From NCBI RefSeq assembly GCF_013122565.1, contig NZ_CP053258.1: DNA of 64,000 bases; one strand, given 5' to 3'. Under the pieces are notes generated by a model that saw nothing but the letters and a program-made list of their open reading frames with translations, ran no database searches and had not been told where the DNA came from. Made by a program: the position numbers and the translations under genes. Of the stretch, positions 11,001 to 13,257 are shown piece by piece (position 1 is the stretch's first letter; the number at the start of each line of letters is the position of its first letter). The DNA comes from Escherichia coli. GTDB taxonomy: Bacteria; Pseudomonadota; Gammaproteobacteria; Enterobacterales; Enterobacteriaceae.

Positions 11001-11329
11001 TGGGACCCCCTTTTGATTTCTTGTTTGACACTTGCAGTTGCCAGACCGCAAGGTGTTTTAACAAATCAAAAGGGGTTTTAATAACTGGCTCAAAGCTGAA
11101 AGCTTTCCGGAACCCCCAGTCTAGCTGGGGGTTTTCTGTGCACAAGAAGAGCCCGTACGAAAGTACGGGCTTTTTTTTCGTATATTGCACACACCGGGTG
11201 CCCCCGCCCACGTCTGTTAGGGCGAGGGGAAATCGTACACATCAACTGTCTGATTGCTCAGTCAACAATCAAAATGCGCAAGAGAGTACAGAACATATAT
11301 GCGCTATCTGGTCACTTCCTGTAACTTCC

Positions 11330-12316
11330 TCACTTATTAAAATGCCCCCAACGGAAATACATGTCACATGCCATCATAAAATCGTTATGCCAGAGGAACC
11401 GACAATGGAAAAAATAGTAAATTAAGCACGGTACATAGCAGAGTAAAAAATAGGCTTCAAACCAAATCCGCCATTCCACAAGCGTTGCCAATACCGACAC
11501 CAGCGTAATCCACATCACTTCAATAACCAGCAATATGAATAACCGAAGCCAAAGCGGCTTGGCAAAAAAGGTCGACAACGCATTTTCACTGGAGAAAAAC
11601 AGATCGATTTCCTGCAAAAAAAGCCTGCCCAGAAAAGCGTACCGCTTGGAGAAGCGCAGAAAAAACAGATTAATCGCCAACACTACGCCACAAAGAATGA
11701 GCAATGCAATTATCGATTTAAACGTTAACCACTGCCCCTCTGTCACAAAAGAGTTACTGTTACGCAACGGGCTGATAGTAAGCAGGTTAACAACCGTTGA
11801 GATACACACCGAAAGCAGCACATAGCGAGTCAGACTTTTATATTTTACTTTTTTCGCTACTGAAATAGCGACCTGCTTGACATAACTGGTGCGGATCATC
11901 CGAAACAACAGAAAGATGACCAACGGCCCAAGTAACGAAATCAGGAACAGCGCATATAACGAGGGTAGAAGCTGGTATAGCCCCCAACTCATTGCACTCA
12001 ACATGATTAACGACAGAAATCCTGCCACCAGAGGTTGTGTAAGAAATAATTCTATTTTGTGGTTCTGCTTTTTCTTAAACCACGAAAAATCGATATTCTT
12101 CGTGACGCATTTATAAGCCCAGTACGCCTTGAGATCAAAAATAAAATTATACAGCACCAGGACCAGAATCCCACTAACTACACCAATATCCTCTGATGGA
12201 AAAGTAAACCCTGCATTTTTCCAATAAAAGCCTATCAGAATAAGTCCAATAGCATAAATGTATATCAGATTTCGTTTATCCTGAAAGCGAATAAAAGTTA
12301 AATAATCAGGAATCAT
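11330..12316 (-). CDS. ycdU: Polytopic inner-membrane protein, 328 aa (YcdU-like), last gene of the 17-gene array
   Basis: Hydrophobic multi-helix ORF; start overlaps stop of upstream FabD-like gene by 4 bp; size matches E. coli YcdU. Confidence 0.55.
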
Positions 12317-13257
12317 TTGAATACCTTCGCATCACTAAATGCTTTACGACAATGCATAACTCGTTGCTGATCCACGCCAGCAAAATCATTTAACATATTC
12401 CCCAAATAGGGCTTATTACTTATTTCAAGGAAAGCTACCGGGGTTGGCATATTCAGAAATGTATCGAGAGATTCAGTCCATTTCACCGTATGAGTTAAGT
12501 GTAATGAGAGATTTTCTTTGATAATTGACGGAGCGACCTCGCTTTTTGCTGTTACGTTCATCAGAACCTGATGCTCTGGCGAAGCGATATCCAGTCCGGC
12601 AAGATAATCGCGCATTGCCTGAACGCCGTCTTCCATCAAACGCGTGTGCCAGGCACCGCTCACACCGAGTTTAACCGGTTCGTACCCAGCGGCCATCAGC
12701 AGCGTGGCAAATTCATTCAACGCAGTCTGCGTTCCCCCAATAACCTGCTGGCGCGGCGTGTTATCACAGCTAATATCCAGCGCAATGCCTGATTCCGTAA
12801 TCATCGTCTGCAGTTGTTCGCGGTTGATGCCTTTAACCGCCAGCATTGCGCCTTTATTTCTCTGGCTTTCGTCATGCATCAGGCTGGCTCTGAAGTGAAT
12901 CATGCCAAATAGCGTCTCAAGAGAAATAGCTCCAGCGGCGTAGAGCGCACTGTATTCACCAACGCTGTGTCCGCAGGAGCCCACAACCGTTAAATTCTCA
13001 AGACGCTCGCGGCACAGGGTATAGAGCGTTACATTAATTGCGGTCACCGCCAGTTGTTGTACCGTCGTTTGAATAAGGCGATTCATCGGCCCTTTCTGAC
13101 ACAGGCGACGCAGGTTCAGTCCGGAAATATCGCTGGCACAATCCCAGATATGTTTTGTACTGGCGTTGAGATCCCAAAGATCGCTGCCCATACCAATAAC
13201 CGGATTACCCTGACCGGCAAAAAGCAGTACTGTCGGTTGTGAAGCATTATTCATCAT
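12313..13257 (-). CDS. Malonyl-CoA:ACP transacylase-like acyltransferase (FabD family)
   Basis: FAGQG N-terminal motif and GHSVGE active-site serine motif. Confidence 0.8.

Follow-up and report, generated by a model that had tools for sequence, protein, structure and literature searches.

K-12 ymdE and ycdU as probable remains of a 17-gene secretion and lipid array lost beside IS3 in Escherichia coli

In a 64,000-nucleotide stretch of Escherichia coli DNA (the window; contig NZ_CP053258.1 of assembly GCF_013122565.1), the gene ycdU stands directly behind a FabD-like acyltransferase gene, at the end of a 17-gene array with predicted secretion and lipid functions. Comparison with E. coli K-12 supports the reading that K-12 ymdE and ycdU are the remains of this array after a deletion adjoining the insertion sequence (IS) IS3, a case of ordinary genome decay. 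The best joint explanation, which we consider probable, is that ycdU is the terminal, translationally coupled gene of the array, that the block containing the array was gained at this locus, that an IS3-associated deletion occurred, and that ymdE and ycdU persist in K-12 as a remnant.

Position of ycdU in the array

The features of the window at and around the junction between the FabD-like gene and ycdU are as follows, with lengths given in amino acids (aa).

11330–31659, minus strand: 17-gene array, defined from open reading frames (ORFs), annotation and NCBIfam matches
11330–12316, minus strand: ycdU, an ORF of 328 aa encoding a polytopic inner-membrane protein; terminal array gene, 99.0% identical to K-12 ycdU
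12313–13257, minus strand: FabD-like gene (acyl carrier protein (ACP) S-malonyltransferase family), an ORF of 314 aa, intact in the window
12313–12316, minus strand: ATGA shared by the ycdU start and the FabD-like stop (direct reading of the sequence)
12324–12328, minus strand: GAAGG ribosome-binding site of ycdU, within the 3′ end of the FabD-like gene (coding strand ...GCGAAGGTATTCAAATGATTC)

An earlier note on this DNA had stated that the ycdU start overlaps the FabD-like stop by 4 bp, and direct reading bears this out: the ycdU ATG (12316–12314) and the FabD-like TGA (12315–12313) form ATGA on the coding strand, seen as TCAT at 12313–12316 on the plus strand. The GAAGG Shine-Dalgarno match (12328–12324) is placed 7 nt 5′ of the ycdU ATG. 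A consensus scan between the two genes found neither a promoter nor a terminator, a weak negative, as the consensus promoter and terminator scans used throughout did not exceed chance level. Through the ATGA overlap and the internal ribosome-binding site, translation of ycdU is predicted to be coupled to that of the FabD-like gene.

The array genes run on one strand from 31659 down to 11330, with no gap longer than 88 bp and several 4-bp overlaps. In order, their products are TpsA, TpsB, AcpS, a short-chain dehydrogenase/reductase, FabA/Z, an ACP, a GcvT-like protein, a double ketosynthase (KS-KS, 852 aa), a single ketosynthase (KS), a hypothetical protein, an ATP-binding cassette (ABC) ATPase, a second hypothetical protein, an FtsX/LolCE-like permease, a TP_0789/LolA-like protein, a 462-aa protein, the FabD-like protein and YcdU. 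All expected motifs of the FabD-like protein are present (the GHS98VG nucleophile, R123 and H204), its homologues carry the Pfam domain PF00698 (Acyl_transf_1), and RefSeq labels its gene 'ACP S-malonyltransferase'. Against the fabD model TIGR00128 the protein scored 177.5 bits, under the equivalog cutoff of 260.9. Judged by its sequence, it is an Acyl_transf_1 family member distinct from the housekeeping FabD.

Homologues of YcdU with 39–73% identity occur in Klebsiella, Enterobacter, Kosakonia, Mixta, Pantoea and others. We examined nine gene contexts outside E. coli that span this range, and in all nine the YcdU homologue comes last, directly after an Acyl_transf_1 gene, with different genes downstream each time. 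The order common to them is KS-KS (852 aa), KS (~406 aa), hypothetical protein, ABC ATPase, hypothetical protein, FtsX-type permease, TP_0789-like protein, ~460-aa protein, Acyl_transf_1 and YcdU, and the full 17-gene order from TpsA to YcdU is found in three contexts, a Klebsiella-type contig, Mixta tenebrionis and Enterobacter cloacae (L046, L050 and L051), where the array is headed by a two-partner secretion (TPS)-domain exoprotein and a ShlB-type partner. Because the terminal position is invariant across genera, ycdU appears to be a conserved array member and not a neighbouring backbone gene. The two closest relatives (73% and 70% identity) have a spacing of −4 bp between acyltransferase and ycdU, and the remaining contexts one of +1 to +16 bp; the recurrence of the −4 arrangement at these identities indicates that the overlap is not due to chance. 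The further proposal that ycdU belongs to the operon is likewise supported by the cross-genus synteny, the 4-bp overlap and the absence of ycdU wherever the array never was.

The array ties an exoprotein of ~1270 aa to a private set of ACP, KS, ketoreductase (KR), dehydratase (DH), GcvT-like and FabD-like proteins and to a LolCDE/LolA-like exporter, a combination that is unusual. The literature, searched for the locus tags and for the combination of enzymes, yielded nothing about the array as such.

The K-12 locus and the IS3-bounded scar

Alignment of the window with K-12 divides this part of the chromosome into the following segments.

54644–44398: efeB to 10 bp past the dgcT (ycdT) stop, matched in K-12 (blastn, 98.4%)
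12656–11144: ymdE through ycdU and 131 bp further, matched in K-12 (blastn, 98.4%)
12657–44397: segment missing in K-12, with IS3D in its place; 31,741 bp, equivalent of O-island 47 (OI-47) of O157:H7 EDL933
12313–12656, minus strand: part of the FabD-like gene retained in K-12 as ymdE, from about residue 201, 99.7% identical (blastn and junction reading)
12657–12841, minus strand: extra 185 nt of the FabD-like gene held by class IIb genomes and O104:H4 (see below), present in 1116 genomes

The annotation of MG1655 gives the order dgcT (ycdT), IS3D, ymdE (a pseudogene), ycdU, serX and ghrA, with ymdE and ycdU overlapping by 4 bp, and so confirms what the earlier note had said of K-12, namely a ymdE pseudogene and ycdU by an IS3 copy after ycdT. 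No part of 12657–44397 had a blastn match in K-12. IS3D is 1258 bp long and complete with both terminal repeats, and its ends (TGATCCTACCC... and ...GGGTAAGATCA) abut the bases equivalent to window positions 44398 and 12656; the junctions read ...GCGGCATTT followed by TGATCCTACCC on the dgcT side and GGGTAAGATCA followed by GTGCCTGGCAC... on the ymdE side. A simple IS3 insertion creates a 3-bp target-site duplication. The flanks of IS3D in K-12 are TTT and GTG, with no such duplication. With 31.7 kb gone, IS3D at the break and no target duplication, the idea that K-12 lost the array by an IS-mediated deletion is supported.

K-12 retains 344 nt from the 3′ end of the FabD-like gene, and this remnant runs on into ycdU. 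The K-12 copies of ymdE and ycdU are 99.0–99.7% identical to the window and the O157 copies 98.2–98.8%, and the window ycdU has 10 differences to K-12 ycdU versus 18 to O157 ycdU. With its start near residue 201, ymdE is without Ser98 and Arg123 and cannot be an active acyltransferase. ycdU itself is intact in K-12. Its upstream sequence there is homologous to that in the window, with no sigma-70-like promoter found by consensus scan between IS3 and the ycdU start (a weak negative), and its RNA is low (53 and 64 versus thousands for the neighbouring phoH in one table; PMC10294691), observations that together fit an orphaned gene. K-12 ycdU is an intact orphan, severed from the array promoter region ~20 kb upstream. 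The earlier note had named two outcomes that would refute its reading, a ymdE dissimilar to the FabD-like gene and a K-12 ycdU with an independent promoter and unrelated upstream sequence; neither was observed.

To place K-12 among other strains we queried 5426 complete E. coli genomes, which gave the following counts.

Type I, array intact: 389 genomes
Class IIa, K-12-like: ~1479 genomes
Class IIb junction: 716 genomes
Class IIc, IS3-free: ~11 genomes
Type III, array-free: 1398 genomes
5′ part of the FabD-like gene: 389 genomes
Intact dgcT–vmpA junction: 385 genomes
Segment 12657–12841: 1116 genomes
ycdU: 2607 genomes
IS3 adjoining a FabD fragment, either class: 2195 genomes

The 2195 genomes come from a query with the K-12 junction and include class IIb, as pieces 185 bp apart were joined; class IIb was counted with a query of its own. 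Scar carriers total ~2206, or ~40% of the complete genomes. In the other genomes, this part of dgcT is missing or the locus is rearranged.

The scar classes differ in their endpoints. Class IIa has its FabD-side endpoint at 12656, with IS3 flanked by TTT and GTG (K-12 orientation). Class IIb, exemplified by FDAARGOS_1059, has the same dgcT–IS3 junction as K-12 and an endpoint at 12841 (...AACCGCC followed by TGATCTTACC), with IS3 flanked by TTT and GGC and likewise no target duplication. In class IIc, represented by O104:H4 2009EL-2050, the endpoint is also 12841, IS3 is absent, and the dgcT side is shorter by the 7 bp (AAATGCC) held by classes IIa and IIb, a difference that shrinks to 4 bp when the common GCC is counted with the dgcT side. 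The join falls at a GCC microhomology, with the FabD fragment 4 bp from dgcT (L006, 3990–4010), in the ~11 genomes including the O104:H4 lineage. We considered this IS3-free junction as a precursor of the IS3 classes and rejected it, as it lacks the AAATGCC that they hold. The ycdU of class IIc is identical to that of class IIb, and class IIc looks like a secondary, rare, near-precise loss of IS3 and 7 bp through the GCC microhomology.

Two further strains show erosion or disruption of the scar. In HS-01 (L005, 5000–7500), an IS3-family element stands between the only remaining 46 bp of ycdU and a 5′-truncated pgaC, with dgcT, pgaA and pgaB gone, such that both sides of the element are eroded; the end of this element differs from the IS3D sequence and it may be a different IS3-family member. 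LD27-1 carries an additional IS1 within ymdE.

Adjacent (one-sided) deletion mediated by an IS is established for IS1, IS3-family and other elements, and a fixed IS junction combined with variable opposite endpoints and no target duplication is its signature. The scars share these traits, in that the IS is kept at the break, no target duplication is present, one junction is constant and the other varies; they differ from the established cases in that the process is known here from junctions only. As an alternative that depends on the IS just as much, two IS3 copies may have recombined with each other.

It is also conceivable, though in our judgement improbable, that IS3 did not cause the deletion, which would have arisen by illegitimate recombination with IS3 inserting later at the scar. 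The IS3-free fusion of FabD and dgcT at a 3-bp GCC microhomology in O104:H4-type genomes would suit such a history, as would the failure to find an intermediate: IS3 beside its undeleted neighbour, with a target duplication, was found in 0 of the 5426 complete genomes, queried for an IS3 end joined to the vmpA side, and in 0 metagenome contigs, queried for both possible versions. A later simple insertion, however, should leave a 3-bp duplication, and neither IS3 class has one. The AAATGCC kept by the IS3 classes on the dgcT side and missing from the IS3-free form means that the latter is no precursor, the pairing of a common IS3 junction with a differing one in classes IIa and IIb is the classic pattern of one-sided IS-adjacent deletion, and the IS3-free form is rare (~11 genomes versus 2195). 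The missing intermediate does not disprove an IS3 mechanism; because of it, the order of the deletion events is one that we infer.

Origin of the block and order of events

The missing K-12 segment is part of a larger block, for which the following features are relevant.

11199–44445: whole block, absent from the Type III locus; 33,247 bp, extending from within the 3′ end of dgcT as far as the first RtT unit
44409–45767, minus strand: dgcT (ycdT); its last 10 codons (44412–44441) encode RDVVNFCESP, a derived tail at the block edge
42701–44311, minus strand: EAL-domain cyclic di-GMP phosphodiesterase gene (vmpA/pdeT homologue; NCBIfam PRK10551, 310 bits), first gene of the region deleted in K-12
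11144–11198: fragment of a serX-associated RtT-type repeat unit, bounding the block on the ycdU side and matching the 181-bp repeats between ycdU and serX in K-12

Homology of the window to Type III genomes and to an outgroup stops at 44437–44446 and restarts at 11198. In Type III genomes, dgcT (455 aa) leads directly into an RtT-type unit and serX, without ycdU, IS3 or fragments, and the break point is at 44446, within the final dgcT codons. A scan with DgcT over species-representative genomes provided one usable Escherichia outgroup, the remaining hits being generic GGDEF domains or contaminant contigs. This outgroup (L014), labelled E. coli and listed as a separate species representative, is 84% identical across pga–dgcT and 89.8% across ghrA–csg, and its locus is also array-free, with dgcT joined to RtT/serX.

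The C-terminal ends of DgcT follow the same division. DgcT ends in ...TEAENLMNWKDDD in the outgroup and in ...KEAEILINRKDDE in array-free E. coli, and a KEAEILINRKDDE-like tail (KEAE...KDD) is present in every DgcT lineage between 76% and 95% identity. The window and K-12 (DgcT of 452 aa) have the tail RDVVNFCESP, which occurs only in a closely related group, at identities of at least 91%. The tail sites are at 44409–44445 in the window, 5958–6003 in L007 and 11331–11371 in L014. On the most economical reading, the block would have entered dgcT near its 3′ end at an earlier time, replacing ~88 bp and supplying a new DgcT tail, and the tail of the K-12 reference DgcT would be a product of the island insertion. 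K-12 retains both ends of the block, namely the ten new dgcT codons and, at the opposite end, ymdE–ycdU with 131 bp.

The earlier note held that the array is ancestral at this locus. This stands back to the common ancestor of the array-bearing and scar-bearing lineages; for Escherichia as a whole it is not supported, in view of the outgroup, the 1398 array-free genomes and the DgcT tails, a correction drawn from one outgroup and the protein tails. Were the array strictly ancestral to Escherichia here, the array-free form would have arisen by deletion, an alternative to which we give little credence. Deletions are frequent at the locus, and the FabD-like gene varies by up to 2.6% among array-bearing genomes, a sign that the block is old. 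Set against this, the outgroup, at 84–90% nucleotide identity, is array-free, the divergence of its DgcT tail (TEAENLMNWKDDD versus KEAEILINRKDDE) is in keeping with that of the remaining protein, and the two tails are distributed as described above. Under a deletion, that functional tail would need to have been generated a single time, ahead of the split from the outgroup, and array-bearing E. coli would then fall outside all other Escherichia.

The converse alternative, in which the array was gained here by insertion into a K-12-like locus with ymdE and ycdU as K-12 backbone genes, is scarcely credible. It accords with the published placement of OI-47, which reviews describe as exclusive to O157:H7, O55:H7 and O145:H28 (PMC10877973; PMC3893438), and of vmpA/pdeT, reported as inserted after ycdT in EDL933 (Richter et al. 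2014; PMC4287979), and with the presence of the array in only 389 of the 5426 genomes. Yet a 5′-truncated fragment abutting an IS cannot yield, and so cannot precede, the intact gene that it matches at 99.7%, which makes the array the older state relative to K-12. Moreover, ycdU was never without the array in the contexts examined outside E. coli, it is missing from array-free E. coli and from the outgroup, and the window ycdU is nearer to that of K-12 than to that of O157.

Divergence between the island and its O157 counterpart is 0.4–3% per 2 kb, reaching 4.3% in 41258–43257, and is comparable to that of the flanking pga genes, which points to long co-inheritance with the locus and argues against recent transfer. 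Two segments stand out by a clearly lower identity to O157:H7 (95.6–95.7% versus 97–99.6% elsewhere in the locus): 41258–43257, the grvA-like regulator/vmpA 3′ region, and 45768–46354, the divergent promoter region between dgcT and pgaA. Base composition is mosaic (33–54% GC) and does not decide the origin of the block.

The junctions of the classes are read directly, and from them we propose the following order. In an ancestor of part of E. coli, a 33-kb block comprising vmpA/pdeT, a grvA-like regulator, a fimbrial operon and the array would have entered between dgcT codon ~442 and the RtT repeats. In a sub-lineage, IS3 would have landed 10 bp 3′ of the new dgcT stop, and an IS3-associated deletion of ~31.5 kb would have followed, after which ycdU and the terminal 528 nt of the FabD-like gene remained (class IIb). 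The K-12 state (class IIa), with ymdE as the FabD remnant, would then have arisen when another 185 bp were deleted from that IS3 end.

Several points weigh against this account. Besides the missing intermediate, the class IIb endpoint without IS3 in ~11 genomes (O104:H4) could be argued in the opposite direction, and only one outgroup genome was recovered. Spread of locus-type alleles by recombination may have contributed to their distribution, and profile and fold searches give no functional clue for YcdU.

OI-47, the YcdU protein and neighbouring features

OI-47 of O157:H7 EDL933 comprises 31,727 bp, z1528–z1556 (PMC8565820), with vmpA/pdeT, grvA, fimbrial, adhesin and fatty-acid/polyketide-like genes. 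The 31,741 bp missing from K-12 between dgcT/ycdT and ycdU, with vmpA/pdeT first and the FabD-like gene last, have the same gene order, are 96–100% identical per segment to an O157:H7 genome and match the O157 annotation in content. Because OI-47 was delimited against K-12, the edge listed for it cuts through the middle of the FabD-like gene; the actual unit begins in the dgcT tail and continues through ymdE and ycdU to the RtT repeats. In contrast to the exclusivity given in the reviews, the window genome carries a ycdU nearer to that of K-12, and ~2206 more genomes bear the scar. The view of OI-47 as an acquisition specific to the O157 lineage of enterohaemorrhagic E. coli thus needs correcting, as ~40% of complete genomes hold the IS3-bounded scar. 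In the literature searched we found no statement placing ycdU in the OI-47 array, and nothing on edges of OI-47 beyond the listed ones or on the ~40% scar frequency.

The truncation of ymdE by IS3 and its full-length homologue are already published: Goldstone et al. (2016) reported that MG1655 ymdE is shortened by IS3 and has a 945-bp homologue in other phylogroups, and suggested that ymdE may keep a function and that ymdE–ycdU is a small pga-linked locus (PMC4951805). Our analysis differs in finding ymdE without Ser98 and Arg123 and in showing that a 17-gene array ends, at its 3′ side, in ymdE–ycdU, which weakens the suggestion that ymdE is a working enzyme. For ycdU, an uncharacterised K-12 'y-gene', the informative study would be in an array-holding strain (O157:H7, RM14516 or the window genome) and not in K-12. 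These results involve no new biological principle; their value lies in a better reading of ycdU, ymdE and OI-47 and in pointing to an unstudied, conserved 17-gene module.

YcdU had no match in Pfam (searched with the protein and 36 homologues), in NCBIfam or, with a profile, among PDB sequences, and none to a solved fold. An AlphaFold (AF2) model built from the alignment is all-helical, with a predicted local distance difference test (pLDDT) score of 87.9 and a predicted template modelling (pTM) score of 0.85. Foldseek of this model against AFDB50 returned only uncharacterised membrane proteins, among them remote fold relatives with 14–22% identity and template modelling (TM) scores of 0.77–0.87 in Providencia, Winslowiella, Paraburkholderia, Verminephrobacter, Aquipseudomonas and Desulfatitalea; one remote relative is labelled DUF975. 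The invariant polar residues of the YcdU family (R10, Q12, R142, Y165, W309-H310, D318 and R322) are grouped at both termini. As a guess held with low confidence, and prompted by its fixed place after an acyltransferase and next to a Lol-like exporter, YcdU could be an inner-membrane component that receives or hands over an acyl product. More broadly, and tentatively, TpsA to YcdU might form an Enterobacterales module that makes and exports a special lipid which modifies or acts with the exoprotein, with YcdU taking the acyl chain from the carrier protein. If so, K-12 ycdU would be a stranded machine part, explaining its resistance to functional assignment.

A possible lead for comparison is the aryl-polyene-type clusters of Enterobacterales, type II and resembling fatty acid and polyketide synthases, which we take to have ACP, ketosynthases, KR, DH and Lol-related envelope export likewise. 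Relative to these presumed features, the array has in addition a fused 852-aa KS-KS, a GcvT-like protein, a LolCDE-like ABC transporter, TpsA/TpsB and YcdU.

Beyond the ycdU end of the block, the window contains one further feature of note.

10435–11143, minus strand: IS200 copy; its tnpA (10542–11051) matches NF033573, and STnc490 is matched at 11010–11133 (140.8 bits)

This IS200 is outside the array and splits an RtT-type unit between 10434 and 11144, leaving unit pieces at 10413–10434 and 11144–11198. The 181-bp repeats between ycdU and serX are annotated as the RtT small RNA in other genomes. In the ycdU–serX spacer (L001, 12962–13560), each 181-bp RtT-type unit repeats the last ~20 nt of the tRNA-Ser gene serX, and these 3′ ~20 nt are the attachment site of serX-integrating islands. 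Positions 1–10251 of the window are the integrase-proximal end of a serX-type island, with a P4-like integrase that is probably frameshifted (a 363-aa ORF at 9160–10251 and an overlapping 77-aa ORF), an IS256-family transposase (2542–3669), an ISL3 transposase fragment (895–1407) and two large ORFs (3841–5367 and 5711–7561) with no NCBIfam match. The window contains no tRNA gene.

Near-identical E. coli dgcT sequences also appeared in a contig of a metagenome-assembled genome named 'uncultured Ruminococcaceae' (L015) and in a 214-bp contig of Methylobacterium organophilum (L019). L015 is 99.3% identical to K-12 across the dgcT–IS3D junction, and both have the appearance of contaminants from K-12-type E. 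coli in public assemblies.

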